Numbered from the stretch's first letter, positions 32,213 to 51,812 are shown. The stretch is DNA of 64,000 nt from Caldilineaceae bacterium SB0662_bin_25 (GCA_009840225.1 VXOE01000271.1:6606-70605), one strand, 5' to 3'. Translations and numbers: made by a program. Notes: a model not told the origin generated them from the sequence alone.

Positions 32213-32400
32213 TGATATACAGCGATGAAGAGATCTTGCGCCGTTTGCGGCTCGGCGAGGACAGCGCTTGGGAGTTCAAACAGATCGAATTCAGCGGCGA
32301 CCAGACGGTAAGCCCGCGTCGTCATTACCGTCCGCCATGCCGGCCAGCCCGGCGGGGGTTCAGTCATCTTCAACGAGGGGACCGGCCAGATTCCAGGGGT
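32212..32400 (+). pseudogene. N-terminal AlbA_2/Schlafen-like DNA-binding domain fragment (frameshifted, truncated)
   Basis: EEILRRLRLGEDSAWEFKQIEFSGDQTVSPRR, then a shift to a frame reading ...GGGSVIFNEGTGQIPGV. It is cut off by the next gene. Confidence 0.35.
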
Positions 32401-32449
32401 GTCGGGGCGGTTGAATCCGATCTATGATCCCGTTTCCGGAGGAGAGTGC

Positions 32450-34269: not shown

Positions 34270-35016
34270 CTACCCTAGCGCCGGTACGATGTTCAGGGGT
34301 TTGTCTCCCGGTCCCCTCCCTTCGAAGAACGACTCAAGTGACCGCCGGCATACGGCCCGGGTGGCGGTTTCCTCTGCGCGTGGGTCCGAACCGCCCAGAT
34401 TTCTGAACCAGTCCGGGTTCCCTTCAAAGCAGATCTGACAGAGTTTTGCCTGTGCGACTTTGCCTTCCGGCGTCAGGTATTCTCCGGCCGGAATGGTGTA
34501 GACGCAGTGGTGTGCGCCGGTCTGTTGTTGGAAGAGAGTGCGTTCGAGATCCGGCGGTTCGTCCCAGTAGTATTTCATCCCGTCGTGCATCCGCGCCCAG
34601 TACTCTTCCATAGACCGGTAAACGGTAAACCGCCCTTCTGCGCTCAGCCTGGCTTTGCGGTCCAGCGCGTTTTGTTGCTGGGTGCCGGCGTAGAGATGGG
34701 CCGGTTGGATACAGCTGCGGCGGTGGCACAGGTGCAGGATGTGCTTGCCTTCCGGGATCTCTCCCCGGGTCATTTCATAGGCGACACGGTGGGCTCGATA
34801 GGGCTTGCCGTTCAGATGCAGAATGCCATAGCCATGCGTATCGAGAGCGTGCCGCCAGATCAGGCAAGGTCCATTGAAAGGCGTCGGACAGTTCGTCGGC
34901 GGTGTGTAAACGGCCGCGTAGTTGCTCCGGGTGATGGGGCCTGGAGACCTTCTTTTGGGGATTCCTGACCTTGCCAGGTACAGGAGGTAAGCCCGTTCGG
35001 CGTGGTGTTTGTTCAT
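34270..35016 (-). CDS. HNH endonuclease
   Basis: CLIWRHALDTHGYGILHLNGKPYRAHRVAYEM...ILHLCHRRSCIQPAHLYAGTQQQNALD is an HNH_3-type signature. Confidence 0.75.
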   Translation of the reverse strand: MNKHHAERAYLLYLARSGIPKRRSPGPITRSNYAAVYTPPTNCPTPFNGPCLIWRHALDTHGYGILHLNGKPYRAHRVAYEMTRGEIPEGKHILHLCHRRSCIQPAHLYAGTQQQNALDRKARLSAEGRFTVYRSMEEYWARMHDGMKYYWDEPPDLERTLFQQQTGAHHCVYTIPAGEYLTPEGKVAQAKLCQICFEGNPDWFRNLGGSDPRAEETATRAVCRRSLESFFEGRGPGDKPLNIVPALG

Positions 35017-35525: not shown

Positions 35526-38500
35526 ATGTTGCATGATACCCGTACGGAGTTGCCCGGCGATTACTGGCAGCGAGTGAAGAGCGTTCGCGAGGTGAGCGGA
35601 TTGACACAGGCGCAGTTTGCCGAGCAGGTTGGCGTTTCGTTTGCCACCGTCAACCGCTGGGAAAACAGGCAGACGCGGCCCAGCACTTTGGCCTGGTCGC
35701 GTATTCTCGACCTTGAGCGGGCCCAGGCATCGCAGGTGATTCCTGAGCCCGCTTCTTTGCAGCAGCCGGCGCCTGTGACGGTTCCGGGCATGGATTTTGC
35801 GGCGGATCCGGAAGCTGTCGCGGCGGTTGTCGAGGCGCACCGTCTTACGTACGGGCATCTTTTCAATTCCGCGTTTGCGATTGAGACGTCGCTGATCGAT
35901 CCGCTGCCGCACCAGCGGATTGCGGTTTACGAGCGCATGCTGAACCAGGCGCCGCTGCGTTTCCTGCTGGCGGATGACGCCGGCGCGGGCAAGACGATTA
36001 TGACGGGGCTGTATGTGCGGGAGATGATCTCACGAAGGCTCATCCGCCGCATTCTGATCGTGCCGCCGGCAGGCCTGGTGGGGAACTGGGAGCGTGAGCT
36101 GCGGACGCTTTTCCGGCTGCAGTTTCGCATTGCCAGCGGGGCGGACGCGCGCGGGGGCAACCCTTTTGCCGGGCCCGAGAGCGACCGCCTGATCGTCAGC
36201 CTCGATACGCTGCGAGGTGAGCGCATGTTCGCGCGCCTCAAAGAGCCTGAGACGGCGCCCTATGATCTGGTGGTCTTCGACGAGGCCCACAAGCTGTCGG
36301 CGCACCGCGAGCAGGACCTGCGGGTGCGCAAGACGGGCCGCTACCGCCTCGCCGAAGCCATCGCCGGCGCAGAGACCGATAGCGAAAAGTGGGCGCTGCC
36401 GTGGTCGGCGCATCATCTGCTGCTGCTCACCGCCACGCCGCACATGGGTAAGGAATATCCCTTCTTTGCTCTGTGGCGCCTGCTGATGCCGGATACGCTC
36501 TCGACCCCGGAAGCGTTTGACGGCTTTTCCCGTGATTCGCGGCGCAGGCATTTCATGCGCCGCACGAAGGAGGAGATGGTCCGCTTTGACGGACAGCCGC
36601 TCTATCCACAGAGAAACTGCGGCACGTTGAGCTATGAACTGACGCAAGGGCCGGGCAGCGAGCAGGAGCTGTACGACGAGACGACGGAGTACATCGCGAC
36701 CTACTACAACAGGGCCAAGATGTTGAACAGGTCGGCGGCGCGCCTGGCGATGAGCGTGTTCCAGCGCCGGCTGGCCAGCTCCACCTATGCGCTGATGCGC
36801 TCGTTCGAGCGGCGGAAAGAGAAGCTGGAGGCCTTGATCGATGATATCAGGAACGACAGGCTGAGAGAAGAGCAGCTGGCGCCGCAACAAGGAGTCCTTG
36901 AAGATATTTTCGAGACGAGGACTTTCGACGAGCTGGATACGGCTGAAGAGGGGGGCGATGCGCAGGAGGATTTTGAGGAAGAGGCCCTGGCGGGGACGGT
37001 GGCGGTCAACCTGGCTGAGCTGGAGGTGGAGCGTCAGCGGGTCGACACGTTGCTTGGCAAGGCGCGCAGGCTCTACGAAGCCGGTGAGGAGTCCAAGTTT
37101 GAGAGGTTGCAGAGTGTACTACGGGACGAGGAAGATGCCGACGAAAAGCTGATACTCTTTACCGAGCATCGCGATACGGCTGAGTTTCTGATTCGCAGGC
37201 TGGAGGGTCTCGGCTTCACCGGCAGGATCGCGCTGATTCACGGCGGGATGCCCTACCAGGAGCGTGAGCGGCAGGTGGAGTTTTTCCGCCGTTCGGCAGC
37301 GGACAACGGGGCCAACTATCTCGTGGCCACCGACGCCGCGGGCGAGGGCATCAATCTCCAGTTCTGCTGGCGGATGGTCAACTACGACATTCCCTGGAAC
37401 CCTGCCCGCCTGGAGCAGCGCATGGGCCGCATCCACCGTTATGGGCAGGAGCGGGATCCGGTTGTCATCGTCAACCTGGTGGCGGGCGCGACACGGGAAG
37501 GCCGGGTGATGAAGAGGCTACTGGAGAAGCTGGAGCTGATCCGGGACCAGCTCGGGTCCGACAAGGTTTTCGATGTCATCGGCCGCCTGTTCGAGGGCGT
37601 TTCGTTCGGCGATTATCTGGCGCAAGCAGCGGCGGGGGAGGAGGGAGAGGTCCTCCGTCAGATAGAAGGAAGCCTGACCAGCGAGCAGGTGATGGCGCTG
37701 GAGGAGAGGGAACGTTCGCTTTACGGGGCGGGGGGCGAGGTGCGCCGCGCCTTGCCCGAACTGCGAAAGCAGACTGGAGAGGAGCATTACCGGCGCCTCA
37801 TACCGGGGTATGTTTATCGTTTTGTCGAAAGGGCGGCGCCGCTGCTCGGCCTGCGGGTAGAAGGGGACCCGGAGGAGGCGTTTGCGCTGGAGGCGACCCG
37901 GCCGCGTGCGCGCGACTTCCTGTTTTCGGCATTGGAAACCTATGCGGCCGGGGCCCGCAACCGTCTGACGGTAGTTAAACCGGATTTTCACGGGGCTGCG
38001 GTGTGGCTGCATCCGGGCGAACCGGTGTTTGACCGCCTGGCGCAGACGGTCATCGTGCGGCACGGCGAACAGGGGCTGCGGGGGGCGGTGTTCGTCGATC
38101 CTTACGCGGAGGAACCGTACCTGGTGCATGCGGCGCTGGTCACTGTAGAGCAGGAGGCGAGTTCAGGGGAGGCTGGCGCGGCCGCGGCCGGCGCAAGGAT
38201 CCTGGAATCGCGGCTGGTGGGGCTGCGTCAGAGTGCGGAGGGAGATATCGAAGAGTGGCCGGTGGAGCGGTTGCTTCTGCTGCGGGGCGCGCCCGGATTT
38301 GCACCGGGCGGGGAGCCGCTGGCCGCGCGGGCGCGCAAGCTGAATCCGGCGGCAGAAGAGTACGTGCGCGCTGATGTTCTTGAGCAGCATGTGCAGGCGC
38401 AGCGGCGGCGTATCCTGGCCGACTTGCCCGACCGCCAGGCGCACGTCAGGCGGGGCTATGGCTTTCAGGCGGCCGAACTGGCGGCGCGGCGTGCCAATCT

Positions 38501-39107
38501 GGTCGCGGACGTGCGGGCCGGGGACGCAGATGCCCAGCGGGAGCTGGCCAGGGTCAAAGCGCGGCAGCGGAGCCTGAATGCGTCGCGGCGGCGGCGTCTG
38601 GCTGAACTGGCGGCAGAGGCGGATCAGGTGCGCGGCGGCGAGGTTGAGTTTATCACGCACGCGCTGGTCGTGCCGGCAAGCGATCCGGAGATTGTCGAGC
38701 AGTTCGACGTGCAGGTGGAGAAGGTGGCGATGGAGGTTGCGACCTCCTTTGAGGAGAGCCGCGGCGCGCGCGTGCAGGATGTTTCGCGACCTTATCTGGC
38801 GCGCCGCGCCGGCCTGCCCGACTGGCCGGGGTTCGACATCCTGTCCGTGAGGCCTGGGGACGAGGCCCGCAGCATCGAGGTCAAGGGCCGGGCCCGGGCG
38901 GGCCCAGTTGAGATGACCGACAACGAATGGGCCAGGGCCTGCAACCTGCGCGACGACTACTGGTTGTACGTTGTTTTTGACTGCGCGACGTCGCACCCGC
39001 GGCTCATCCGCGTGCGTGACCCGTTCGACAAGCTGCTGGCCAACAGTCGCTCGTCGAATTCGGTTACCGTCAACGTTGAGGCGCTCTATGGCGCTGCGGA
39101 AGCGTAA
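35526..39107 (+). CDS. HTH(XRE)-SNF2 helicase-DUF3883 fusion protein
   Basis: N-terminal [30 protein letters not shown]2 motifs [56 protein letters not shown]. C-terminal GFDILSV...IEVKGR...[21 protein letters not shown] is a DUF3883-type nuclease-like fold. Confidence 0.9.
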   Translation: [1193 protein letters not shown]

Positions 39108-39120
39108 TGGGAGGGACAAC

Positions 39121-39456
39121 ATGGCCGCAAGACAGCCGCGTTACAGCAAAGAGGAGTTCGCCCAGCGCGGCCAGGCACTTTACGAGAAGTGCGTGAGGGC
39201 GCAGGTGGAAAGAGGCAACCGCGGGCGGATCGTAGCAGTTGACATCGAGACGGGTGAGTTCGAGGTGGGAGACGATGCGGTAGCCGCCTCCAGCCGGCTC
39301 CTGGCGCGCTGTCCGGATGCGCAGCCGTGGTGTGTGCGCATCGGGTACCGGGCGATGCACCGGTTTGGGCAGTTGCATGGCAGCGGCGCGCGAGGGTTGC
39401 GGGGCGGGTCAACGCCGAGCCACTCTATGCGGCTGCGGAATAGTAGAGGGAGATAA
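39121..39456 (+). CDS. DUF5678-like small protein
   Basis: GRIVAVDIETGEFEVGDDAVAASSRLLARCPDAQPWCVRIGYRAMHRFG parallels 26038-26355. A retropepsin-like gene follows 5 nt downstream. Confidence 0.5.
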   Translation: MAARQPRYSKEEFAQRGQALYEKCVRAQVERGNRGRIVAVDIETGEFEVGDDAVAASSRLLARCPDAQPWCVRIGYRAMHRFGQLHGSGARGLRGGSTPSHSMRLRNSRGR

Positions 39457-39460
39457 AGAA

Positions 39461-39844
39461 ATGGGGGTAACACAAGTAACAGTCCTTATCCGCAATCCGG
39501 CCGAGCCGGACAGAACATGGGAAGGACTATTCCTTGTCGATACCGGCGCGATCGATTCGCTGGTTCCCAGGCCGCAATTGGAGGCCATCGGTCTCAGGCC
39601 CAAGGGGCAGCGTGTATACGGGCTGGCAGACGGCAGCGAAATCCGGCTCGACATCACGACTGCAGACATAGAGTTTATGGGTGAAATCGTCGGTGGGACG
39701 ATTGTGTTTGGCGCGGAAGACGCGGAGCCGCTGCTGGGGGTGACCGCGCTGGAATCGGTGGGCATAGAGGTCGATCCGCGTAATCAGACACTCAAGAGGT
39801 TGCCGACGACGCGACTCAAATTCCTAGGAACTAGCCAGGGTTGA
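39461..39844 (+). CDS. Retropepsin-like (clan AA) aspartyl protease
   Basis: 127 aa with LFLVDTGAIDSLVP (DTGA active-site motif) and C-terminal LLGVTALESVGIEVDP. Confidence 0.6.
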   Translation: MGVTQVTVLIRNPAEPDRTWEGLFLVDTGAIDSLVPRPQLEAIGLRPKGQRVYGLADGSEIRLDITTADIEFMGEIVGGTIVFGAEDAEPLLGVTALESVGIEVDPRNQTLKRLPTTRLKFLGTSQG

Positions 39845-39866
39845 TTGACCTTGTGGAGGTATCGTG

Positions 39867-41222
39867 ATGGAGAACAAACGAGATCACATTTTTTTGAGTT
39901 ACGCTACTGAGGATTGGCCATTTTGTGAGTGGCTCGGCCGCCGGCTCGCTGCGGAAGGGTACGCCATATGGTGCGACCGACTGAAGATGCTGGGGGGAGA
40001 GAATTGGCCTAATGATATTGAGATCGCGATAGCCGAACGAACATTTCGGATGCTTGCACTAATGTCGCGGGCGTCGATGCGCAAGCCCAATCCACAGGGG
40101 GAATGGCAAAAGGCTAGAGCCATGGGGGCTAAGTTAGGAGTTGAAGATTTCCTTATTCCATTAAATGTTGAAGGTCTTCGATCTGATGAGATTATATGGA
40201 ATTTTCAAACAATCAATTACATCAGTTTTTCACATAGTTGGTCCGATGGTCTCGCCGCCGTACTGAAAAAACTCCACTCGGTCTCGGCACCCAGAGTTTT
40301 GAAGGAAGGACGACGGCTCGCAATAGAATCAACTTTCATGAAGACAGCCATCCGCGAAGAATCTGAAATATTGGTGAGCAACTGCTTTGAGATTATTCAG
40401 ATACCTCGCTACTTGCGCATATATAGCGTTAATGCCAGTCCTATCTCCAAGAGTGAGGGACACGAATTGCGAAAGGAGTGGGCATGCAGTGATGTTACGC
40501 CGTCTACAGTATTGGCATTCCATGATCCGCCGACTGACGTTGCTGCGAGGCATAATTTCCAATACGTCAAGCAGGTTGCTTGGCGCGATGCCATTAAAGT
40601 GGATGGCATTGACTCTCGCGACCTTGTGGTCAGGCTTATTCGAAGATGCCTTGATAGACTCATGACAGAATTCGGATTGAAATATTCCGAAGCCAGCGGA
40701 AATTTCTTTCTTCCCCGTGGTCTTCTACATAACGACCGTGTCCCGGTTACCCTTCCGAATGGGAGGAAAAGCTGGTTCTCTGGAGTCGGTGAACGCAAGT
40801 ATTCAACCGCGAAAGGTGGAGAGGTTTACAGATACCATCTGAGCCCTTCGTTTGACATTGTGCGTGAAGATAATGAACCCACTGCGCTGTTTTTGCGAAA
40901 TCGAGTCCATCTGACCGACAGTAACGGTAAGGAACTGGAAAGACGTAAGATTCCATCGCGACGTAAGCATTTGTGCAGAAGCTGGTTCAATCGAGAGTGG
41001 TGTGTTCGAACTCTCGGCATTGCACAAATGCTCGCCAATGATGATATGCATATCCGATTTGGACCAGAGGGAGAGCAGCAGCTTGTCATCGGTGCTGAGC
41101 CAGTTGCAATGGAGGTTTCTCACAGGATCTGTGACGAACTTGTGGGTGAAATCGATGAAAGCTACACGACATGGTATTCGGGAGAAGAAGCAGGATCTGA
41201 TGATTTCAACGAGGAAGAGTGA
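39867..41222 (+). CDS. TIR-APAZ protein (SPARTA-type partner of short pAgo)
   Basis: N-terminal TIR motif IFLSYATEDWPFCEWLGRRLAAEGYAIWCDR. ~450 aa, immediately upstream of a short pAgo. Size, order and N-terminus match the SPARTA architecture. Confidence 0.8.
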   Translation: MENKRDHIFLSYATEDWPFCEWLGRRLAAEGYAIWCDRLKMLGGENWPNDIEIAIAERTFRMLALMSRASMRKPNPQGEWQKARAMGAKLGVEDFLIPLNVEGLRSDEIIWNFQTINYISFSHSWSDGLAAVLKKLHSVSAPRVLKEGRRLAIESTFMKTAIREESEILVSNCFEIIQIPRYLRIYSVNASPISKSEGHELRKEWACSDVTPSTVLAFHDPPTDVAARHNFQYVKQVAWRDAIKVDGIDSRDLVVRLIRRCLDRLMTEFGLKYSEASGNFFLPRGLLHNDRVPVTLPNGRKSWFSGVGERKYSTAKGGEVYRYHLSPSFDIVREDNEPTALFLRNRVHLTDSNGKELERRKIPSRRKHLCRSWFNREWCVRTLGIAQMLANDDMHIRFGPEGEQQLVIGAEPVAMEVSHRICDELVGEIDESYTTWYSGEEAGSDDFNEEE

Positions 41223-41229
41223 AGACGGT

Positions 41230-42735
41230 ATGCAGAGAGAATTAACGCTCCTATCTGAACCGACTCTAGAATTTCGGTACGGCCAGCAATTGTCCGACCC
41301 ACGAGACGGACTCTCACTTTTTGGCCCGTACGATGCAGACTTGCCTAGTCATCCCGGGGCACTGACCTATGGTGTTGTTGGTACATCGGAGGGGTTAGAT
41401 CAATTCGCGGCATGGTCGCGCGCGATGCTCCGATCATGGACGCATGCCCCAAAGGGACGTCACCGCTTGTGGCCCCCATATCCGGGATTCCAAGCGGCGT
41501 TTGCCTGTAACTGGCATAGTGAACCTGCTTGGCGTCGAGTGCTGGACAGTCACACATTGAGCGACTTAGCGCGACGGCATGACCCGTATGAAAGAGTCTA
41601 TTCTGTTGTTGAAGAATATCTTGAGGCCTTCAAAGAACTGGAGAAGCTCGATCAGCGCATCAATGTCATGGTTTGCATAGTGCCTGACGAGATCTATAAG
41701 ACTTGTCGGATCAAGTCGCGTGTGTCGAATCCAACTGGCGAAAACGTTTCAAGCAAGCGAATCAGGGAGCGCAAGAGCGGCCAACTTGATATGTTCTCGA
41801 CGTATGCGCCGGAGCAGTACGAACTCTCACTTGATTTTCGGCGTCAGATCAAGGCGCGGGCGATGGCGTATGGCGTTCCGATTCAGATAATTCGCGAATC
41901 TACTCTGCGGCTAAGTGACGAAACTCCGTTCGGCCAAAGACAGCTAACTCCACTATCCCATCGCATGTGGAACCTAACCAGTGCACTTTACTACAAGGGA
42001 GGGGGTAAACCGTGGCGGCTTGCCACAGCACGGGAAGGTGTGTGCTATATAGGGCTCGCATTTCGACGACGCGATGCCGAAGGCGGACCTCAAACTGCGG
42101 CATGTGCAGCGCAGATGTTCCTTGATGATGGCGATGGCATAGTATTTTTGGGGAATTATGGGCCATGGTACTCGCCCAAGACCAGGCAGTTTAGACTTAC
42201 GGCTGAGGCAGCGCATGATTTGCTGGAAGGAGCCTTGGAGACCTATGCGCAGTTGCACGGAAAGGCATTAACAGAAGTCTTTCTACATTCTCGGTCCGAA
42301 ATCAGCGCCGAAGAATTTGAAGGATACCGCTCTGCCGCACCTGCCAGTATCAAAATTGTCGGTGTTCGAGTGCGGCCTTGGCGTGACGGTCCCAGGCTCT
42401 ACCGGCCAGACAAGTCCTGGCCGGTGATCCGAGGCACATTTTGGCAGCACTCACCTACGAGAGGATATCTCTTCGGTACGGGGTTCAAGCCAAGGCTCGG
42501 CACCTACGACGGATGGGAAACGCCGGTACCTCTTCAAATGGACGTTCAACATGGTGATGCGAATGTGACTGAGGTAGCGCGCGACATCCTCGGATTAACA
42601 AAACTTAATTACAACGGATGTAATGCTGGCGACTCTCAGCCGGTTACAGTCAAGTTTTCTGATGCAGTGGGCGAGATTCTGGTTAGTAACCCGACGGTGA
42701 CTGACCGGCAACCTACGTTCAGGTATTACATCTGA
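41230..42735 (+). CDS. Short prokaryotic Argonaute (MID-PIWI)
   Basis: 501 aa. The N-terminus LSEPTLEFRYGQQLSDPRDGLSLFGPYD...YGVVGTSEGL...WPPYPGFQAAFACNW...VMVCIVPDEIYKTCR and PIWI-type ALYYKGGGKPWRL resemble characterised short pAgos, from memory of MapAgo-like sequences. Confidence 0.8.
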   Translation: MQRELTLLSEPTLEFRYGQQLSDPRDGLSLFGPYDADLPSHPGALTYGVVGTSEGLDQFAAWSRAMLRSWTHAPKGRHRLWPPYPGFQAAFACNWHSEPAWRRVLDSHTLSDLARRHDPYERVYSVVEEYLEAFKELEKLDQRINVMVCIVPDEIYKTCRIKSRVSNPTGENVSSKRIRERKSGQLDMFSTYAPEQYELSLDFRRQIKARAMAYGVPIQIIRESTLRLSDETPFGQRQLTPLSHRMWNLTSALYYKGGGKPWRLATAREGVCYIGLAFRRRDAEGGPQTAACAAQMFLDDGDGIVFLGNYGPWYSPKTRQFRLTAEAAHDLLEGALETYAQLHGKALTEVFLHSRSEISAEEFEGYRSAAPASIKIVGVRVRPWRDGPRLYRPDKSWPVIRGTFWQHSPTRGYLFGTGFKPRLGTYDGWETPVPLQMDVQHGDANVTEVARDILGLTKLNYNGCNAGDSQPVTVKFSDAVGEILVSNPTVTDRQPTFRYYI

Positions 42736-42969
42736 CCAGCTATTCCAGGGACTCACGTTGTCCACGTATCCACCATAGCACATGTGGTCCAGTTTTTGGG
42801 GCCAAGCTCGCAGCGCCTAAGAGAGTTCGCACAAGCCCCATTCCCTGATGGGTATTTCGGTAGCGATCAGACTTCTCTGTGTGGTTACTCTAGATTGGTA
42901 GGAGGATAGTAGCATGGACCCTGTGACATTCTTACAGCACACAGATGGAGGTCGATTGGAAGAGACAAC

Positions 42970-43335
42970 ATGAGCCAACTCGGTTTGCTGACCGGCATTT
43001 ACGCTGATGTCGAGACGTACGGGGCGCTGATAGACAGGGTAATTGACCGCCTGGGGCGGGGGCAGGTTGACCCGACCGAGCCGGACCAGAAGAGGCTGGC
43101 GCAACTTTTTGTTGATGCAAGCGATCAAGGTCTGGCGTCGCAGTCCCTGAAAGCGTTGATGTTGGACAGCCTGCTCAGGACAAGCACTGCTGAACCTATG
43201 GCAGACTTGAAGCTGCTAGGTGAACGTCTTCAGAGCGGTGATGTGGATCATGCGTTTCTGAAGCAGATCGAGGAACTCGCAAGACAGCTGGAACAGAAGC
43301 GGGTGGACATTGCGCGTCAGATACGGGGCTGTTGA
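42970..43335 (+). CDS. Hypothetical 121-aa protein
   Basis: ORF only; predicted helical; no motif recognised. Its stop overlaps an ATG (ATGA at 43333-43337). Confidence 0.4.
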   Translation: MSQLGLLTGIYADVETYGALIDRVIDRLGRGQVDPTEPDQKRLAQLFVDASDQGLASQSLKALMLDSLLRTSTAEPMADLKLLGERLQSGDVDHAFLKQIEELARQLEQKRVDIARQIRGC

Positions 43336-43457
43336 TGACCATGAGACTCTTGATAGGGCTATTGGGGAATCTACTGGAATGGGCGCCGAAAGGTTATGAG
43401 GCTTGGAAGGTAAAGCAGCTTGAGACTTTACGTGCGATCATTGACGTGGCGTTTTGA
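43335..43457 (+). CDS. Possible 40-aa peptide
   Basis: ATG overlaps the preceding stop. Reads MTMRLLIGLLGNLLEWAPKGYEAWKVKQLETLRAIIDVAF. Below the ORF-track size threshold, with no further support. Confidence 0.2.
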   Translation: MTMRLLIGLLGNLLEWAPKGYEAWKVKQLETLRAIIDVAF

Positions 43458-43571
43458 ACGGCGCGCGCCCAAGGCAGCGGCACTCGAGTCCGTGGTGACT
43501 GAAGCTAGTCGGCGTAGTCAGATGCGTAAGAGATTGTCGGCAACTAGACATAAGGGGTATAGAGAGAGGGT

Positions 43572-45299
43572 ATGAATTCGCCTGCTGTCACTTTTCAGAC
43601 CGTCACCTTTTCAGACGGGACTGTAGTTGAACTTGAAGAATCTGACGTTATGGTTCTCGTCGGCCCGCACAATGCGGGCAAAAGTCTTGCGTTAACTGAA
43701 CTCGAAGGGCACTTTAGCGGCTTGGTAGGATCCAAGGTTGTTTCGACGGCCTCAATTCGTAAGACTGGATCAAAGGAAGCGTTCACTAAATGGGTTGAAA
43801 GACATGTGCGAATTGAACCCCAGGGCTCCCATTGGACATACTCTGCGTTTGGGAACAGTCTTTATACCCCTAATCCACCAGATCAATTGTGGCCTCAACA
43901 CATTCAGTCTTTCAATCGATTGTTCTGTAAAAGGATTGCGACTGAAACCCGTATAACGGATAGCAATCCTGTTGAAGCAATTGATATCTTGGCTGGCATG
44001 CCCATACATCCTATTCAAATGATGTTCAAGAATGTCGAACTTGAACTAAAGATAAGCGAATACTTTCGGCGAGCCTTTGGCAAGGACATCATTCTTGATC
44101 GAGCGTCCGGAGCGAACTGGCATTTGCTGGTGGGCGACCGCTTGACACCTCTAGAGGGAGAAGATCGAATATCAGATGCCTACCTAAGTCGAGTTCGCCT
44201 CTCCACCGTACAGTTGAATCAGCAGGGAGACGGGATGAGAAGTTTCGCTAGTGTGATCATGCACCTCCTTGCTCCGACAACTTTCACTCTCCTTATGCTC
44301 GATGAGCCGGAGGCATTTCTACATCCCCCTCAAGCTCGTCTTCTCGGAGAAATCATTGCTACTCAAAAGTCTCCCCGCGCGCAACTTTTCTTGGCTACAC
44401 ATAGCCCCGATGTGCTCCAAGGCCTAATCAATGTTGCTACTGAGCATCTGCGTCTCTTGAGAATGCAACGTGACGGCAACGTAAATCGAATCAAGGAACT
44501 GGATAAGGAATTCGTAAAGGAAATCAGTCGTGATCCTTTGATGAAGCACTCCTCGGTTCTGTCTGGGCTTTTTCACAAAAGAGTGATTGTCTGCGAAGGA
44601 GATGCAGATTGTATGTTTTATGGCTCAATTCTCGACCTGACAGAGATTCACGGAGAGACGCATCCCGACGTTTTGTTTGTTCACGGCGGCGGCAAAGACC
44701 GGTTGGCCAAACTTGCAAAAACGCTGATTGCCCTTGACGTGCCGGTCGATATTGTCGCTGATATGGACCTCCTGAATGACGAGAATATTTTTAGGGCCAT
44801 CGTTGAGGCGCTCGATGGTGATTGGGATGTCGTGAAGCCGATGGCTAGAGCCATAAAAAAAGCGATCGAAGAGCACAAACCTTGGTTGAACGCTAACGAG
44901 ATTAAGAAAGGTATTGTGGAAATTCTGGACCGGCTGCCGTCTACAGGAGAGTTTCCGGAACGACAGCAGTCTGAGATAAGGAAGCTTTTCCGCAAAGCAT
45001 CTCCGTGGGATGCTATCAAATCAGGGGGACAGGCCGCCCTTCCCCCGGGCGAAACAACTCGAAAGTTTCAAGAATTGCGAGAGTTTTGCAGCCAAATGGG
45101 CTTATGGATTGTACCAGTCGGCGAGCTGGAGGGTTTCTGCAAGTCCATTGGAGGGCACGGACCCCGTTGGGTGCGGCAAGTGATCGAGGAGCGGGATCTC
45201 GCGACCGATCAAGAACTTGAAAGCGCCCGCAAGTTTGTTAAGCAAGTATGGGAAAGTAGGCGTTCCTATGCTATGGGGGACACGGCGCAAGGGATTTAG
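43572..45299 (+). CDS. ABC-type ATPase fused to a Toprim/DUF4435-like domain (OLD/PARIS-like)
   Basis: Walker A LVGPHNAGKSLAL, Q-loop/signature region LNQQGDGMRSF, Walker B LLMLDEPEAFLHPPQ, H-loop LATHSPDVL. C-terminal VIVCEGDADCMFY ... VDIVADMDLL carries the Toprim Glu and DxD. Confidence 0.8.
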   Translation: MNSPAVTFQTVTFSDGTVVELEESDVMVLVGPHNAGKSLALTELEGHFSGLVGSKVVSTASIRKTGSKEAFTKWVERHVRIEPQGSHWTYSAFGNSLYTPNPPDQLWPQHIQSFNRLFCKRIATETRITDSNPVEAIDILAGMPIHPIQMMFKNVELELKISEYFRRAFGKDIILDRASGANWHLLVGDRLTPLEGEDRISDAYLSRVRLSTVQLNQQGDGMRSFASVIMHLLAPTTFTLLMLDEPEAFLHPPQARLLGEIIATQKSPRAQLFLATHSPDVLQGLINVATEHLRLLRMQRDGNVNRIKELDKEFVKEISRDPLMKHSSVLSGLFHKRVIVCEGDADCMFYGSILDLTEIHGETHPDVLFVHGGGKDRLAKLAKTLIALDVPVDIVADMDLLNDENIFRAIVEALDGDWDVVKPMARAIKKAIEEHKPWLNANEIKKGIVEILDRLPSTGEFPERQQSEIRKLFRKASPWDAIKSGGQAALPPGETTRKFQELREFCSQMGLWIVPVGELEGFCKSIGGHGPRWVRQVIEERDLATDQELESARKFVKQVWESRRSYAMGDTAQGI

Positions 45300-45334
45300 C
45301 GCAAGGGTGAGCAAACTTAGAGAGGCAATCAAGA

Positions 45335-46333
45335 ATGCTCGAGCATATTTCAAAGATACTTGCTACTGAAAAACTATTGGACTATCTCGCCAGCGGCATT
45401 GGGGCGACTGCCGGCCCTATCTTTCGTCCTTGGCAGGCATACATGGAGGGTCATGCGAAACGCATTTCCGCCCGGGCTGATGCCGATGCTTTGGCGATCA
45501 TTGCGGAGGCTCAAGCCGATGCACGTCAGTATTTGATCGCGCCGGGTGCAGATGTACAAGGGGCGGTAGAAATCACCCACGAAAACATCATGCAGCGAAT
45601 CGAATTCCAGGAGAGGAAGCGTCTCGCCAATATCAGGTCGGTCGTGGAGAGTGCTGCGGAAGAACTGGGCGAAAAGGAAGTAGTCGATCACGAACCGGAT
45701 CATGATTGGACCGCGCGCTTCTTCGACTGTGTGCAGGACGTATCGTCTGAGCATATGCAGAAGCTATGGGCTAAAGTCCTATCCGGGGAAGTCGAAAGCC
45801 CTGGGCGGACCTCGCTCCGAACTCTGGATACCCTCCGAAACATGACGAAAAGAGATGCCGAGCTTTTCGATGAATTCGCCGGCTACGTTATTGGAGGCAA
45901 GTTTGTGTTCAACGACGATCATTTTGTGCAACGCCTCGGCGCTATGAAACCCAAATACCTACTGCACCTTCAGGATTGCGGTTTGGTAATCATTGCACCG
46001 TTTTTGAGGTGGACTGGAACATTCGGGGATGGGGAGAGATCGTTTTTTCTCTATCAGGGTGGCGCTCTGCTGATCGAGAAAGAGAAAGGCGCTTCAGATA
46101 AGTTGGAGATTCCCATAGTCTCGCTCACAGCCGCTGGCAAAGAACTTTTCCAGATTGTCCAAGGGTCAGTACAAAAGGCTTACTTACAAGACTTCGCTAC
46201 CTTTCTTCAAAATAGGGGCTGCCAATTGTATCTCGTCGATGAAGTAGTAAATTTGCCTGAAGGCGGGTTTAACTACACCAGTTGCGAGTTAATTGAGCCA
46301 AGACCCATACAATCAGGAATGCCGACCTTATGA
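45335..46333 (+). CDS. DUF2806-like protein
   Basis: DWTARFFDCVQDVSSEHMQKLWAKVLSGEVESPGRTSLRTLDTLRNMTKRDAELFDEF matches my recollection of the DUF2806 core. Its stop overlaps the methylase ATG (ATGA at 46330-46333). Confidence 0.55.
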   Translation: MLEHISKILATEKLLDYLASGIGATAGPIFRPWQAYMEGHAKRISARADADALAIIAEAQADARQYLIAPGADVQGAVEITHENIMQRIEFQERKRLANIRSVVESAAEELGEKEVVDHEPDHDWTARFFDCVQDVSSEHMQKLWAKVLSGEVESPGRTSLRTLDTLRNMTKRDAELFDEFAGYVIGGKFVFNDDHFVQRLGAMKPKYLLHLQDCGLVIIAPFLRWTGTFGDGERSFFLYQGGALLIEKEKGASDKLEIPIVSLTAAGKELFQIVQGSVQKAYLQDFATFLQNRGCQLYLVDEVVNLPEGGFNYTSCELIEPRPIQSGMPTL

Positions 46334-49300
46334 CAGACAAACGCCTGATTGAAGTTGAATTTCCGCTTAAGCAGACCTCGCTCGACTCTGTGCACGAGAA
46401 AAACGTGCGGCATGGGCACATTTCCACGCTGCATATCTGGCCGGCGCGTAGGCCGCTGGCCGCTTCGCGGGCGGCGCTGATTGCGACGCTGCTGCCGGAC
46501 TCTGGCAACGCGGAGAAGCGCAAGGAGATTCTGGAGCGGATGGCCGGCCGTGTCGTGGAAAAGATCGAGCGGCGGCGGGTCAACGGGCGTCAAGTTGAGA
46601 AGGTGAAGGAGGAGACGGTCGGCGGCATTCTTCACTGGGGGCGGGAGAACGGGCCGGACCTGCAGTGGTTCCGCGATGAGATTCGTAAGGCCTACGGGGG
46701 CCGTGCACCCAAGGTTCTGGACCCGTTTGCAGGGGGCGGCGCGATCCCGCTTGAGGCGATGCGTTTGGGCTGCGAAGTTACGGCCATGGACATCAACCCG
46801 GTCGCCTGGTTCATCCTCAAGTGCACGCTTGAATATCCGCAAAAGCTGGCCGGGCAGACGCGGCCGCTGCCGGAGTTTGCGCTGCACGACGGCGAGTTCA
46901 TGGAGGCGTTTCTCAAGAGTAAGGAGTTCAAAGGCGCGTCACTGCGAACGATGCTGGAGCGGCTCGGGCATGGGAAGGGTGAGACGCAGTTAAATTACCT
47001 GAGCCAGGAGGATCCGATCCTCGAGGCCGATCTGGCGTGGCAGGTGCGGGCCTGGGGGCGATGGGTGCTGGCCAGGGCGCGCAAGGAGCTAGCATCCTAC
47101 TACCCGACCTACGCCGAATTCGTGCCGCTGGGGTCCGATAGCGAAGATGATGACCCGCCTCCTATACAGCTGTTGGAGGTCGATGCAGATGGTGTAGCGC
47201 AAATCGATCCGCTCAACGCCGAATATGACGATGACTACCTGCGCGACCCGCGAAACCCGCGCTGGATCGCCAAGCCGACGGTTGCCTACCTGTGGGCGCG
47301 TACTGTGATTTGCAAGCAGTGCCGCGCTACGTTGCCCCTGCTCAAGACACGCTGGCTGTGCAAGAAGGAGCGCAAGCGGGTGCTGCTGACGATGGAGCCG
47401 GACGCCGACGGAACCGGTGTCGTCTTTGGGGTGGAGCCGGATGTGCCGCGCGTCGGCGGCAACGCGGCGCAGCGCCGGGAGCATGACAGGCGCGCCGGCG
47501 CGGGCACAATGTCGCGTGCCGGCGCTACCTGTCCCTGCTGTGGCGTCATCATGACGATGGAGGATATCCGCCTGGAGGGGCGAGCGGGGCGGCTGGACGC
47601 GGTGATGACAGCGGTTGTGGTCAACGGACCAAAAGGAAAAGAGTACCGACTTCCGACCGAGAACGAGCGCACGGTGGCAGAGGTGTCAGAGCGCGAACTG
47701 CAAACGCTTTACGCTGACATTCCCTTCGGGCTGCCGGAAGAACCCACTCCCAAAGCCGGAAGCGGGGCGTCGCGAGCATTTTCTGTGGACGGCTATGGTT
47801 TTGACACGTGGCGCAAGCTGTTTACAAACCGGCAACTCCTGGCACTTGGCGAGTTCGTTAGTGCCTTGCGTGACATGCCGAAGGAACTCGACGGCTATCC
47901 CACCGATTGGGCAGAGTCTATTGTGGCCATGTGCGCCCCCATAATCAGCCGTATGGCAGACCGAGGAAGTACGCTGGCTACATGGACAAATAACCCCGAA
48001 AAAATAAGAAGCACCTTTGCGCGGTTTGCATTGCCGATTACATGGGACTTTTCGGAGTTTGCCCCGCTATCCGATACCACAGGAGGGTTTGTTCAATCGA
48101 TAGATTGGGTTTTTAAGGTCTGTGAACATCTGCAACAGAGCGTTGAAACGGCTAGCTGCGGGAATAGTATCTGCGAGTCAGCAGTGTCCTGCCCGGTCAA
48201 CGCCGTTGACCTGATTCTAACTGACCCTCCATACTACGATGCGATTCCATATTCCGACTTGATGGATTTTTTCTATGTCTGGCTGAAGCGTTCTCTTCAG
48301 GGGCTGTCTCCCGAAATTGAGCATACCTTTTCCAGAAGTCTCGGACCAAAGTGGGATCACAACTCTAATGATGGCGAGCTGATAGACGACGCCAGCCGGT
48401 TTGGTGGTGACAGAGAACGGTCGAAACAAAACTACGAAGATGGCATGGCACGCACTTTCCGTTCTTGTCATTCTGCGTTGAAGGGCGACGGTCTGCTTGT
48501 AATCGTTTTCGCAAACAAACAGCCGGATGCCTGGGAAACTTTGGTTGCTGCCCTGATTCGAGCCGGTTTTGTCGTTGACGGGTCGTGGCCAATACAAACA
48601 GAGATGGGGAACCGGAATCGAGCCATTGCTTCCGCCGCCCTGTCGTCGTCAGTATGGATAGTCTGCAGGAAGCGACCTCCCTCCCGCCCCGGCTGGGACA
48701 GCAGCGTGCTGCAGGAGATGCGGGAGAACATAACCCAGCAGTTGCGCGACTTTTGGGACGCCGGCATACGCGGGCCGGACTTCGTGTGGGCGGCGACGGG
48801 GCCGGCGCTGGAGGCGTTCAGCAAGTACCCGGCGGTCAAGAAGGCAAACGACCCTGACAAACTGATGAGCGTATCCGAGTTTCTGCGCGAGGTGCGGCGC
48901 ATGGTCGTCGACTTCGTGGTCGGCCGCGTGCTGTCCCAGGACGGCGAGGAGGTGGTGACGGGGCTGGACGACGTCACCACCTACTACCTGCTGCATCGCA
49001 ACGACTTCGGCATGGACGACGCGCCGGTCGGCGGCTGCATCCTCTACGCGCTCTCCTGCAACCTTTCCGACGCGGCGCTGGTGAACCAGCATGACTTGCT
49101 GGCGAAAGGCAAAAAGCGCGGCGCCGGCGAAGCGGTTGAGCAGGAGGGCAGCGAGGAGGAAGGCGGCGGGGGCGGCGCCAAGGTCAAGCTGAAGCCATGG
49201 AACCGGCGCACGGGACGCAATCTGGGAGTTGAAGGCCCGGGCGGGCGGCCTGTACCTCTGATAGACCAGGTGCACAAGCTGATGCAGCTCTGGCGCGGCG

Positions 49301-49500
49301 GCGACCAGGGCAAGGTGAACAGTTACATTGATGAACGCGGGCTGCAGCGCAACGCGCTGTTTGTGCAGATCCTGCAGGCCTTGATCGAGCTGGCTGATGC
49401 CGGCTCCGGGGAACGCTCGATCCTGGAGGCGCTCAGCAATCATGTTAAGAATCGAGAGCGTGTGAGGCCGACGCGCCAGGGCCAGTTTGTTTTAGAATAG
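46330..49500 (+). CDS. DUF1156-family DNA methyltransferase (amino-MTase with Zn-ribbon)
   Basis: DUF1156 N-terminus LIEVEFPLKQTSLDSVHEKNVRHGHISTLHIWPARRPLAASRAALIATLL. SAM motif I LDPFAGGGAIPLEAMRLG, Cys4 (CKQC...CPCC), motif IV LTDPPYYD. Confidence 0.9.
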   Translation: MTDKRLIEVEFPLKQTSLDSVHEKNVRHGHISTLHIWPARRPLAASRAALIATLLPDSGNAEKRKEILERMAGRVVEKIERRRVNGRQVEKVKEETVGGILHWGRENGPDLQWFRDEIRKAYGGRAPKVLDPFAGGGAIPLEAMRLGCEVTAMDINPVAWFILKCTLEYPQKLAGQTRPLPEFALHDGEFMEAFLKSKEFKGASLRTMLERLGHGKGETQLNYLSQEDPILEADLAWQVRAWGRWVLARARKELASYYPTYAEFVPLGSDSEDDDPPPIQLLEVDADGVAQIDPLNAEYDDDYLRDPRNPRWIAKPTVAYLWARTVICKQCRATLPLLKTRWLCKKERKRVLLTMEPDADGTGVVFGVEPDVPRVGGNAAQRREHDRRAGAGTMSRAGATCPCCGVIMTMEDIRLEGRAGRLDAVMTAVVVNGPKGKEYRLPTENERTVAEVSERELQTLYADIPFGLPEEPTPKAGSGASRAFSVDGYGFDTWRKLFTNRQLLALGEFVSALRDMPKELDGYPTDWAESIVAMCAPIISRMADRGSTLATWTNNPEKIRSTFARFALPITWDFSEFAPLSDTTGGFVQSIDWVFKVCEHLQQSVETASCGNSICESAVSCPVNAVDLILTDPPYYDAIPYSDLMDFFYVWLKRSLQGLSPEIEHTFSRSLGPKWDHNSNDGELIDDASRFGGDRERSKQNYEDGMARTFRSCHSALKGDGLLVIVFANKQPDAWETLVAALIRAGFVVDGSWPIQTEMGNRNRAIASAALSSSVWIVCRKRPPSRPGWDSSVLQEMRENITQQLRDFWDAGIRGPDFVWAATGPALEAFSKYPAVKKANDPDKLMSVSEFLREVRRMVVDFVVGRVLSQDGEEVVTGLDDVTTYYLLHRNDFGMDDAPVGGCILYALSCNLSDAALVNQHDLLAKGKKRGAGEAVEQEGSEEEGGGGGAKVKLKPWNRRTGRNLGVEGPGGRPVPLIDQVHKLMQLWRGGDQGKVNSYIDERGLQRNALFVQILQALIELADAGSGERSILEALSNHVKNRERVRPTRQGQFVLE

Positions 49501-49578
49501 ATCCGCCATTACTTCTGGGCGTTCACAGCAGACGGGATGTGGGCCCTGTCCTACCATGTAGCAAATAAGGACTGCAAG

Positions 49579-50859
49579 ATGGCCAAGATTCAGGGGTTCA
49601 GAGTAAGGAATTTCAAGGTGCTCAAGGATGTGACCCTGGGCCGCCTGTGGGATCAACGCGAAGGCCAGCCGCTCACTGATTTGACGGCGGTCATCGGCAA
49701 GAACGGGGTCGGCAAGAGTGCCCTGTTCGATGCGTTCGGTTTCCTGGCCGATGCTCTGAACTCCGGCGTGGAAGTGGCCTGCGATGCGCGCGGGCGCGGC
49801 GGCTTCGAGAGGATAAGGTCTCAAGGAGAAACCGGGCCAATCGAATTTGATGTCTATTACAAAGAGAATCGGAACGCCCGGCCGATTACCTACGAAGTTG
49901 CTATCGATGCGGACGGCTCCGGACGCCCCTACGTGGTGCGGGAACGGCTCAGGCAGAGACGAAAGGGGCAGAAATACGGTCGGCCGTTTTCGTTTCTGAT
50001 GATCAATGACGGCAAGGGATGGGCATGGAAAGGAGAAGAGGACGGGTATGAGATTGACGAAAGCAAGGAGTGGAGAGACATAAATGCATTGATCCTGTTT
50101 TTCGCGAGAGAGGAATCGAGCGAGACCGAGATCATTGAATTGGAGGACCGTCGCAGGCTCGGCATTGCCACGCTGGGCGCCTTGAAACAGCACCCGCGCA
50201 TTTCCGCTTTCCGCCGCTTCATAGAGGGATGGTATCTCAGCTACTTCACGCCGGACGCGGCGCGCAGCCTGCCGCTGGCCGGGCCCCAGCCGCATCTCAA
50301 CATCCACGGGGACAACCTCGGCAACGTCGTCCAGTTCATGGAGCGCGAGCATCCACAGCGCTTTGAGACGATTCTTGAGGGTATTGCCGGGAAGATACCC
50401 GGCATTGACCGGATCGATACCGAAAAGACAAGCGACGGGCGCCTGCTGCTCCGTTTCAACGACAGAGGCTTTGAAGACCCTTTCTATGCCCAGCAGATGT
50501 CGGACGGGACGCTGAAGGTCTTTGCTTATCTGTTACTGCTCGAGGACCCGACGCCGCCTCCGTTCCTTTGTATTGAAGAGCCTGAGAACGGTCTGTATCA
50601 CAAGCTGCTGGAGACGCTGGTCGACGAGTTTCGCGCGCACGCCAGCGGGCCCGGAGGTGGTTCGCAGATCTTCGTCACGACACATCAGCCTTATCTTGTG
50701 GACGCGCTCAACCCGGAGGAGGTCTGGATTCTGGAGAAGGGGACGGACGGTTTTTCGACGATCCGCCGGGCCAGCGACGATCCTCTCGTCAAGAACCTGG
50801 TTGCGGAGGGGTTGCCGCTGGGTGGCCTCTGGTACAGCGACTATCTTGACGCGAGGTGA
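49579..50859 (+). CDS. AAA_15/AAA_21-type ABC ATPase
   Basis: Walker A AVIGKNGVGKSALFDAF, QMSDGT, Walker B FLCIEEPENGLYH, H-loop FVTTHQPYL. Start chosen at MAKIQGF. Confidence 0.85.
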   Translation: MAKIQGFRVRNFKVLKDVTLGRLWDQREGQPLTDLTAVIGKNGVGKSALFDAFGFLADALNSGVEVACDARGRGGFERIRSQGETGPIEFDVYYKENRNARPITYEVAIDADGSGRPYVVRERLRQRRKGQKYGRPFSFLMINDGKGWAWKGEEDGYEIDESKEWRDINALILFFAREESSETEIIELEDRRRLGIATLGALKQHPRISAFRRFIEGWYLSYFTPDAARSLPLAGPQPHLNIHGDNLGNVVQFMEREHPQRFETILEGIAGKIPGIDRIDTEKTSDGRLLLRFNDRGFEDPFYAQQMSDGTLKVFAYLLLLEDPTPPPFLCIEEPENGLYHKLLETLVDEFRAHASGPGGGSQIFVTTHQPYLVDALNPEEVWILEKGTDGFSTIRRASDDPLVKNLVAEGLPLGGLWYSDYLDAR

Positions 50860-50863
50860 GCTG

Positions 50864-51514
50864 ATGCATTTTGAGATCCTCGTTGAAGACCAGTCCGGCA
50901 AGAGGGCGCTTGACGTTCTGATCCCGAAGATCATCGGCGCGCAGGATACATTCAAGGTGAGGGGCTACAAAGGAATTGGCCGCATTCCCAAAGACCTTAG
51001 ACCCAGGACCCAGGCCAATAGACGCATTTTGCTCGACCAGCTTCCCAAGTTGCTCAGGGGGTTTGGGCAGACATTCGTCAATTATCCCGCCAACTATCCG
51101 GCAGTGTTGTTTGTGGTCTGTGACCTGGATGACAAATGTCTGAAGAGATTTCGGCAGGAGCTTTTCTCAGTCCTCCATGCGTGCAATCCTAGACCGGACA
51201 CCCGCTTCTGTATTGCCATCGAAGAGGGCGAGGCCTGGCTGCTCGGTGACATACCCGCGATCAAGGCAGCGTATCCGCAGGCCAAGGATTCTGTTTTGAA
51301 CGGTTACGTCAATGATTCGATATGCGGTACATGGGAGGTCCTGGCGGACGCCGTGTTCCCGGGCGGCTCCAAGGCGCTGGCGGGAGGGGGATGGCAAGCG
51401 GTGGGCAGGGAGAAGTCGATATGGGCGACGAAAATCGCCCCGCTAATGGACGTGGAGAACAACGCATCCCCCAGTTTCCAGTACTTTCGGGGGAAGATGC
51501 GGGCGTTGATTTGA
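50864..51514 (+). CDS. DUF4276-like Toprim-type protein
   Basis: MHFEILVEDQSGKRALDVLIPKI (Toprim-like Glu) and VLFVVCDLDDKC (DxD). Starts 5 nt after the ATPase stop. Confidence 0.65.
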   Translation: MHFEILVEDQSGKRALDVLIPKIIGAQDTFKVRGYKGIGRIPKDLRPRTQANRRILLDQLPKLLRGFGQTFVNYPANYPAVLFVVCDLDDKCLKRFRQELFSVLHACNPRPDTRFCIAIEEGEAWLLGDIPAIKAAYPQAKDSVLNGYVNDSICGTWEVLADAVFPGGSKALAGGGWQAVGREKSIWATKIAPLMDVENNASPSFQYFRGKMRALI

Positions 51515-51557
51515 GAGTCGATGCTGAAACCATATTCCGGATAGCGACCGGCGAGAC

Positions 51558-51643
51558 AACTGCTTTTTTCCACGGAGGACACGGAGGGACACGGAGAACT
51601 GCTTTTTTGTCCGCGGAGGGACGCGGAGAGGCGCGGAGAACAC
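51558..51643. repeat. Tandem ACGGAG-rich intergenic repeat (2 units)
   Basis: aactgcttttttccacggaggacacggagggacacggagaactgcttttttgtccgcggagggacgcggagaggcgcggagaac. Related copies lie at 55183-55278. Confidence 0.6.
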
Positions 51644-51812
51644 CAAGGGCGTATCGATTTTTTTGTGCGCAGCCGTTCGCAGAGTAAGCGCACTTTGCCC
51701 GCGTAATTCGCTGTTCGGACAAAGGTCAATGAGGTCCGGACAAATCCCAGATGACGATGGGCCTGCCCCCCAGGCCGTTACAGAAGACTCAATTGCGTGC
51801 AAAGAGGACAAA

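Follow-up and report, generated by a model that had tools for sequence, protein, structure and literature searches.

The locus considered here raises the question of whether four consecutive genes constitute one new anti-phage system or several that have come to lie side by side. These genes occupy positions 42970 to 46333 of a 64,000-nt stretch of DNA from Caldilineaceae bacterium SB0662_bin_25 (GCA_009840225.1 VXOE01000271.1:6606-70605), referred to below as the window, in the coordinates of which positions are given. They encode two small proteins (p121 and p40), a 575-aa OLD-family protein in which an ABC-type ATPase is joined to a Toprim module, and a 332-aa protein with a DUF2806 domain. 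In the original prediction they were taken as a single cassette, coupled to the DUF1156 methylase gene that follows. The reading preferred here, to which a probability of roughly 0.62 is assigned, is that the interval comprises three separately inherited anti-phage modules stacked in the embedding slot of an Hma defence operon, with the roles proposed below for the OLD and DUF2806 proteins.

The slot between hmaA and hmaB

All four open reading frames (ORFs) were recovered on the + strand with the coordinates and lengths originally predicted. Together with the three core Hma genes they are arranged as follows:

35526-39107, + strand: hmaA, the first core Hma gene, an HTH-SNF2 helicase with a NOV_C nuclease-like C-terminus (PADLOC HmaA, 5.3e-169; Pfam SNF2-rel_dom, Helicase_C, NOV_C and HTH_3)
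42970-43335, + strand: p121, a conserved protein of 121 aa with no Pfam family
43335-43457, + strand: p40, 40 codons from its ATG, probably the decayed remnant of a ~380-aa partner of p121
43572-45299, + strand: OLD-family ABC-ATPase/Toprim protein of 575 aa (Pfam AAA_21, AAA_15 and OLD-like_TOPRIM)
45335-46333, + strand: DUF2806 protein of 332 aa (Pfam DUF2806, 2.1e-38)
46330-49500, + strand: hmaB, a DUF1156 DNA methyltransferase of 1056 aa (PADLOC HmaB, 3.3e-117; Pfam DUF1156, 1.3e-16)
51813-55136, + strand: hmaC, the last core Hma gene, a DUF499 ATPase (PADLOC HmaC, 3.6e-74; Pfam DUF499, 2e-15)

Homolog clusters number more than 2,700 for the 575-aa protein, 822 for the 332-aa protein and 119 for the 121-aa protein, and these ORFs are therefore not chance occurrences. 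The PADLOC hidden Markov models (HMMs) place HmaA, HmaB and HmaC together on the + strand between 35526 and 55136, and the four-gene interval occupies the embedding slot between the first two. This surrounding Hma system, in which embedding has already been described, went unrecognised in the original prediction. Embedded genes are contained in 62.7% of 1,485 Hma systems, and several candidates have been validated, including HEC-04, an ATPase-Toprim fusion (bioRxiv 10.1101/2024.01.29.577857). The window is a heavily loaded case of that architecture, with HmaA, HmaB and HmaC accompanied by nested defence genes that include HEC-01, a pAgo system and an ATPase-Toprim fusion. Unlike ordinary embedded cargo, the DUF2806 gene is fixed to hmaB by an ATGA overlap across many genomes. 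Neither DUF2806 nor PF10987 was found in the part of the supplement to the embedding study that was examined (bioRxiv 10.1101/2024.01.29.577857), a partial coverage by which absence is not proven.

DUF2806 and its methylase partners

A genome collection was scanned with a DUF2806 alignment, giving 80 loci that each derive from a different species representative, and these were profiled with HMMs derived from the proteins of the window and from relatives of these. The loci span the Chloroflexota, Alpha- and Gammaproteobacteria, Binatia, Latescibacterota, Gemmatimonadota, Acidobacteriota, Poribacteria and other taxa, with many from metagenome-assembled genomes (MAGs) of sponge symbionts. About 24 of the 80 are Hma loci. 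In 19 the DUF2806 stop and the hmaB start overlap by 4 nt (18 ATGA, one TTGA), as they do at 46330-46333 of the window, where the overlap had been correctly predicted, and translation from the overlap yields a conserved HmaB N-terminus (...KRLIEV/AFPL) in these loci. The same 4-nt overlap is present in loci L003 and L102-L105. At least 19 species-representative genomes, drawn from several bacterial lineages (the Chloroflexota, Alpha- and Gammaproteobacteria and Binatia), thus have DUF2806 in translational coupling with the methylase gene. Most of the DUF2806/Hma loci come from MAGs of at least eight phyla, many with sponge-symbiont-style bin names (SB06xx, APA, COS, RHO), a pattern suggesting that this Hma subtype has spread horizontally in a single habitat.

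Methylases of other kinds also neighbour DUF2806 genes. Type I restriction-modification (R-M) loci account for 16 of the 80, nine of them with the order HsdM-HsdS-DUF2806-...-HsdR, and where the gap was measured the DUF2806 gene starts 3-23 nt after hsdS. The remaining loci, about 40, are mixed; among 19 large neighbouring ORFs scanned there, Eco57I/MmeI-type methylases were found to adjoin DUF2806 in at least five loci, while the other neighbours scanned are transposases or housekeeping genes. In the EcoprrI system the anticodon nuclease PrrC is embedded between hsdS and hsdR and is kept silent by the Type I enzyme. Distant DUF2806 relatives occupy this same hsdS-hsdR position, which suggests by analogy that DUF2806 may be a guard that fires when restriction is inhibited. 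Unlike PrrC, DUF2806 carries no ABC ATPase or anticodon-nuclease domain, and the analogy is one of position only. On plasmids, 312 records match the window DUF2806 protein, 308 of them conjugative, and the backbone of the Escherichia coli IncX4 plasmid pYJ3-b (L101, 3812-4663) contains a lone 283-aa DUF2806 gene beside a DUF2726 gene and the replication initiator.

Membership of the 332-aa protein in Pfam DUF2806 (PF10987), as originally predicted, is clear from a match of 132.8 bits against a cut-off of 24.5 (E 2.1e-38). It also matches TIGR03899 at 3.8e-32, under the cut-off of that model, and the annotated IncX4 DUF2806 protein in tblastn at 1e-13, and an identical protein is on record from the MAG Caldilineaceae bacterium SB0668_bin_21. 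Residues 1-84 (47% mean pairwise identity) are helical and poorly modelled, the invariant motif D-Y-x-A-S-G-x-G-A-x-A-G standing ahead of the poorly modelled helices. A conserved helical core follows at residues 85-186 (70% mean pairwise identity), the invariant positions of which include P121, D122, D124, W125, T126, QDVS 134-137, G151, E152, P156, G157 and TSLRTL 159-164. Residues 187-332 form a hypervariable alpha/beta C-terminal domain with a mean pairwise identity of 36%. In at least ten loci only residues 1-186 can be aligned (48-57% identity) even though the ORFs are of full length, and the C-terminal domain is therefore replaceable. AlphaFold gave mean confidence (pLDDT) values of 67 for the full-length protein, 76 for residues 112-332 and about 85-95 for the C-terminal alpha/beta domain.

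Searches with these models and with the sequence gave few leads. Weak fold matches (E 0.17-0.5) of the full-length model to GTP cyclohydrolase I, and of the model of residues 112-332 to PAS/Cache-like sensor domains, are untrustworthy and were set aside. The sole strong match in BFVD, to an unnamed 229-aa phage protein (A0A291AUV8, E 2e-12), is uninformative on function. A DUF2806 profile returned coiled-coil noise only from the PDB sequences, Pfam reports no Abi_alpha domain in the protein at E <= 5, and there were zero PHROGs matches for the DUF2806 protein, as for p121 and the p121 partner x380 described below. In PADLOC-DB v2.0.0 the DUF2806 protein matched 0 families, as did p40, and no named system there brings all of the components of the interval together. 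The claim that the OLD/DUF2806 pair is undescribed thus stands: the database holds no DUF2806 model, and the literature searched describes no such pair.

The closest functional precedent is Belisama, a DUF2806 single-gene system of the Vibrio cholerae chromosomal integron, which causes unrecoverable culture lysis at high multiplicity of infection and is toxic when over-expressed (bioRxiv 10.1101/2024.07.02.601686). The DUF2806 domain is common to both proteins, and Belisama illustrates that members of the family can be lone genes. The window protein is unlike it in matching half of the Pfam model, in its extra N-terminal helical region and in being coupled to a methylase gene rather than carried as an integron cassette.

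Coupling of this kind could also mean that a distinct Hma subtype has DUF2806 as an integral fourth subunit or as a regulator, or that DUF2806 is more generally a methyltransferase accessory, involved for example in restriction/methylation control or target choice, and not an autonomous abortive-infection gene. This is the main rival explanation, and is judged unlikely. The ATGA coupling kept in 19 genome loci of four lineages speaks for it, as does the position of DUF2806, always on the methylase strand and directly adjacent. When pairwise identities are compared, DUF2806 shows correlations of r = 0.57-0.65 with HmaA, HmaB and HmaC, and its variable C-terminal domain might conceivably act as a specificity element. 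The correlations among the core genes themselves are, however, higher (0.78-0.89), and DUF2806 evolves faster, with a mean identity of 49% against 64-68% for the core Hma genes. The canonical Hma systems of Thermus and Rhodococcus plasmids are without DUF2806, and on the Thermus thermophilus plasmid pTHTHE1601 (L099, 5764-9748) a gene of the Fic family runs 8 nt into the start of the DUF1156 methylase gene. Because the Fic gene occupies the same slot there, the position directly 5' of hmaB with an overlapping stop and start is taken to be a general embedding slot. Members of the family are furthermore found in Type I operons that already possess HsdS and beside Type IIG enzymes; on IncX4 backbones and in the Belisama cassette the gene stands alone.

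On the stacked-module reading, DUF2806 would belong with the methylase and not with OLD, one Hma clade having fixed it directly upstream of hmaB; the stop/start overlap implies that the two genes are co-transcribed and probably co-translated. What was observed is the architecture of the genes, their distribution, the coupling, the pattern of conservation and the intact motifs, whereas the biochemical activities, the trigger and any physical contact with the methylase are inferred. DUF2806 may be a Belisama-type abortive-infection protein, in which the conserved N-terminal half would serve as the effector or as an assembly part and the fast-evolving, sometimes swapped C-terminal alpha/beta domain as the sensor. 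The protein would form a second line of defence, by which the cell is killed or arrested once the methylase-based system has been bypassed or inhibited. This guard role is favoured in view of the PrrC-like position of DUF2806 in Type I operons and of its predicted co-translation with HmaB. A more ambitious and decidedly tentative extension is that DUF2806 proteins form a widespread, unrecognised class of methyltransferase-tethered 'tripwire', produced in fixed ratio with HmaB or with Type I or Type IIG methylases and binding to them, in which the hypervariable C-terminal domain would sense phage anti-restriction factors or loss of the methylase complex and the core would trigger death.

The OLD gene and the small reading frames

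The 575-aa protein was predicted to be an OLD-design fusion of an ABC ATPase and a DUF4435-like Toprim module. The fusion itself is borne out by Pfam (AAA_21, 9.8e-15; AAA_15, 1.3e-9; OLD-like_TOPRIM PF20469, 3.9e-6), while the Toprim module belongs to the OLD-like family and no DUF4435 match was obtained at E <= 0.01. The motifs VIVCEGDADCMFY and IVADMDLL are present in the translation. Old is the best PADLOC model (1.8e-21). Of the solved structures, 6P74, an OLD-family endonuclease from Thermus scotoductus, matches best at 8.3e-7, ahead of GajA chains at 2e-4; in the 6P74 alignment CEGDAD is paired with VEGYGD and VADMD with VHDED. Across 23 OLD homologs the invariant ATPase residues comprise Walker A G31, P32, N34, G36, K37 and S38, the signature-like QGDGMRS at 218-224, the Walker B LDEPE at 243-247 and the H-loop H277, and the invariant Toprim residues are E342, D344, D346, D393, D397 and D399.

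The N-terminal ABC ATPase motifs are thus intact, and the C-terminal Toprim has its catalytic Glu and acidic metal-binding cluster. The protein stands alone as a class 1 OLD does, without the UvrD-like helicase of class 2, the retron reverse transcriptase or non-coding RNA of class 3, or the AriA/AriB split of class 4: no helicase or reverse transcriptase gene lies between 42735 and 46333, no such partner accompanies the homologs in L084-L086, and an Rfam scan of 39000-52000 returned zero families. By its architecture the 575-aa protein fits a class-1-like OLD, and its activity and trigger may be those suggested by P2 Old and the solved OLD enzymes. Like P2 Old, the T. scotoductus enzyme (6P74) and the Burkholderia OLD (6NK8), it unites an N-terminal ABC ATPase and a C-terminal Toprim in one chain and has no helicase partner. 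It differs in its low similarity to 6P74 (E 8e-7, over residues 241-400 only) and in a long, conserved and uncharacterised C-terminal extension (about 400-575). Because of the precedent of P2 Old and the Thermus and Burkholderia structures, this second module may be pictured as an autonomous and independently mobile single-gene OLD, in which an ATPase dimer would use ATP to license a Toprim two-metal nuclease to cut DNA once infection is sensed.

Related ATPase-Toprim systems fit less well. HEC-04 of E. coli shares the domain design and the kind of genomic slot, and its Walker A and Toprim mutants lose defence (bioRxiv 10.1101/2024.01.29.577857). It nevertheless represents a different ATPase-Toprim lineage, with no significant similarity to the 575-aa protein beyond the Walker motifs. 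Orthology with HEC-04 was rejected after a BLASTP comparison with 399 residues of Table S2 (best E 0.05, Walker A only), and HEC-04 is not among the 25 best PADLOC matches. PARIS and Gabija are alike in their ABC ATPase and Toprim chemistry, and the partial PADLOC matches to AriA, AriAB and GajA (1e-9 to 1e-16) are weaker than that to Old. For PARIS, there is no DUF4435 AriB-type match, and AriAB matches at only 4.6e-9 over residues 240-385. For Gabija, no UvrD-like GajB lies next to the gene in the window, where the downstream gene is DUF2806, or at the stand-alone homologs.

The small ORFs have a different association. Members of the p121 family are consistently 121-123 aa long and carry no Pfam domain; in PADLOC-DB v2.0.0 p121 obtained only a chance-level DpdH match (0.0014). 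A metagenome scan with a p121 alignment gave 9 loci only, and the p121 statistics are accordingly those of a small sample. In nine independent loci (L087:3698-8607, L089:3695-8505 and L092-L098) p121 is the third gene of an operon that consists of a PDDEXK_1 nuclease, a ~790-aa Piwi pAgo, p121 and x380, a protein of ~380-411 aa with a YHELCHPFH (HExxH-like) motif. Neither p121 nor x380 has a Pfam, PHROG or NCBIfam family, and in L087 and L089 p121 overlaps the pAgo gene by 4 nt. Both have the appearance of accessory genes, as yet undescribed, in a pAgo system associated with a nuclease.

The junction between p121 and p40 was originally given as an ATGA overlap; it is a 1-nt TGATG overlap (stop at 43333-43335, ATG at 43335-43337), the same as that between p121 and x380 in L087 and L089. 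An x380 HMM matched p40 through positions 360-379 of 384, at E 0.63 when ranked first among 1,747 six-frame segments of the window and at 3e-4 in a two-sequence search, and matched the 51-aa equivalent of p40 in L102 at 4.6e-6; in L104 only a 23-codon stub of p40 is left. With moderate confidence, p40 is read from these matches as a decaying x380 remnant, comprising the start codon and the C-terminal tail left by an internal deletion. The alternative that p40 is a genuine coupled small gene was rejected in favour of this remnant reading, on account of the HMM matches and the shared TGATG junction. The first module would accordingly be the leftover of a two-gene unit ordinarily found behind a pAgo gene, p121 having lost almost all of its ~380-aa partner to deletion. 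Upstream of DUF2806-hmaB, p121 is found in L001 and L102-L105, and it is constant in Caldilineaceae-type Hma loci where the module preceding it varies (SPARTA-like in the window; Pkinase and TPR in L001 and L102-L105). The inclusion of p121 in an OLD/DUF2806 unit was likewise rejected, p121 occurring in pAgo operons elsewhere and without OLD.

It is improbable that the OLD-like ATPase-Toprim protein and DUF2806, with or without the small ORFs, form one new cooperating defence system coupled to the methylase. In favour of such a system, the two genes are neighbours, 14-130 nt apart, in the window (where the predicted 35-nt spacer lies at 45300-45334), in L006 and in the related metagenomic loci L003 and L102/L103. 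Moreover, 14 of the 120 best OLD homolog clusters are recorded on contigs of the same size as those of DUF2806 matches, as are about 11 of the 22 closest, and DUF2806 lies outside all PADLOC models. The survey of co-occurrence proposed with the original prediction showed, however, that the two mostly do not occur together. An OLD homolog adjoins DUF2806 in just one of the 80 species-level loci (L006), and homologs of 57-62% identity are lone genes in three large genomes (L084-L086), among metabolic genes or toxin-antitoxin pairs, with neither DUF2806 nor Hma in the vicinity. In L001, L002, L104/L105 and about 17 other genome loci, DUF2806-hmaB is found without OLD. The window and its close relative L104 are collinear at 42970-43390 (88% nucleotide identity) and from 45353 onwards (77%), and the 1.96 kb between these blocks, which holds the remainder of p40 together with the complete OLD gene, is missing from L104 as a clean indel; a search for repeats that might be insertion scars around the OLD gene gave only short matches at chance level. 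The single-system proposal fails because OLD is mostly absent beside DUF2806, stands alone elsewhere and is an indel in L104, and because p121 belongs to pAgo operons. Where OLD and DUF2806 are neighbours, this is read as one OLD lineage having settled in the slot and been inherited with it, with no mutual dependence.

A still less probable alternative, that DUF2806 and p121 accumulate in defence operons as passengers without a role in immunity, such as neutral hitch-hikers or genes for addiction or maintenance, would accord with the location of DUF2806 near partition and replication genes in the IncX4 backbone, with its housekeeping or transposase neighbours at many loci and with its lack of a catalytic motif or fold match, but it is at odds with the strongly conserved core motif, the recurrent placement in R-M-like operons across phyla and the phage resistance conferred by Belisama.

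Several observations weigh against the stacked-module reading. The proximity of OLD and DUF2806 in several related loci and on contigs of equal size means that functional synergy between them may exist, and the multi-phylum ATGA coupling with partial co-divergence from the Hma core fits DUF2806 as a real subunit of an Hma clade equally well. For about 35 of the 80 DUF2806 loci, no methylase was recognised in the neighbourhoods sampled. The PF10987 match covers only model positions 3-101 of 221, the first half, and neither the full-length model nor that of residues 112-332 has a significant PDB neighbour (best E 0.17). Belisama is likened to the window protein by domain and description only. 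Finally, promoter and terminator predictions in 39000-52000 did not exceed the shuffle expectation and none fell in the intergenic gaps, so that the operon structure is drawn from gene spacing alone.

Neighbouring modules and what the locus means

Four further genes are embedded in the Hma operon, two upstream of p121 and two between hmaB and hmaC:

39864-41222, + strand: TIR-APAZ protein of 452 aa (PADLOC Aga_TIR-PNTD1-PNTD2, 1.2e-65; Pfam TIR_2, 1.9e-20)
about 41230-42735, + strand: short pAgo of about 500 aa (PADLOC pAgo_I, 1.7e-166), with TIR-APAZ a SPARTA-like embedded pair
49537-50859, + strand: HEC-01A, an ABC ATPase (PADLOC, 2.1e-192)
50864-51514, + strand: HEC-01B, a DUF4276 Toprim-like protein (PADLOC, 5.2e-92)

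The place of the SPARTA-like pair is taken in L001 and L102-L105 by a Pkinase (361 aa) and TPR (about 506 aa) pair. Both HEC-01 genes were detected between hmaB and hmaC in 12 of the approximately 24 related Hma genome loci (L002, L006-L008, L011, L012, L016, L018, L023, L027, L031 and L037; L024 is the same record as L002), and gene calling and tblastn add another pair from the genome of L001/L004. HEC-01 is a near-fixture of this Hma clade; no defence by HEC-01 was detected by Payne et al. (bioRxiv 10.1101/2024.01.29.577857).

A 175-aa ORF at 39317-39844 has weak retropepsin-like aspartyl-protease matches (gag-asp_proteas, 1.8e-4), and homologous sequence lies directly 3' of hmaA in L003, L008 and L037 and directly 5' of the DUF2806 gene in L014. 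Directly downstream of hmaC, and convergent with it, is a 1202-aa ORF on the - strand (55856-59464) with no Pfam domain; its segment has a GC content of 45-47% compared to about 58% for the window, and it was probably acquired horizontally. The region 5' of hmaA (features at 31440-32212, 32399-34087 and 34270-35016) contains an NTase_sub_bind (HEPN-type)/nucleotidyltransferase pair, a 562-aa protein with a single, weak PADLOC match (PDC-M58A, 7.7e-7) and an HNH endonuclease on the - strand. The surroundings of the Hma operon resemble a defence island.

Hma embedding, OLD-type nucleases and a defending DUF2806 protein (Belisama) are already known. What is new is a DUF2806 lineage that is not random cargo: a conserved ATGA overlap hard-wires it to the methylase gene of Hma, and its relatives occupy the PrrC slot in Type I R-M operons or adjoin Type IIG methylases. 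This lineage is also modular, its core being conserved while the C-terminal domain changes rapidly and is at times swapped. The candidate p121/x380 accessory pair of the pAgo operon is a by-product. DUF2806 is a testable candidate for a second-line guard of methylation-based immunity, with a fold that has no solved relative, and serves as a marker for a distinct Hma subtype. Were the tripwire proposal true, it would provide a mechanism without solved structural precedent, a functional analogue of PrrC that is neither nuclease nor ATPase, and a four-component Hma subtype spread among several phyla and many sponge-symbiont genomes. The locus also cautions that adjacency and short spacers are poor evidence for a single system. 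With a SPARTA-like pair, a pAgo-accessory remnant, OLD, DUF2806 and HEC-01 in one Hma operon, it indicates that defence operons grow by the stacking of independent modules.

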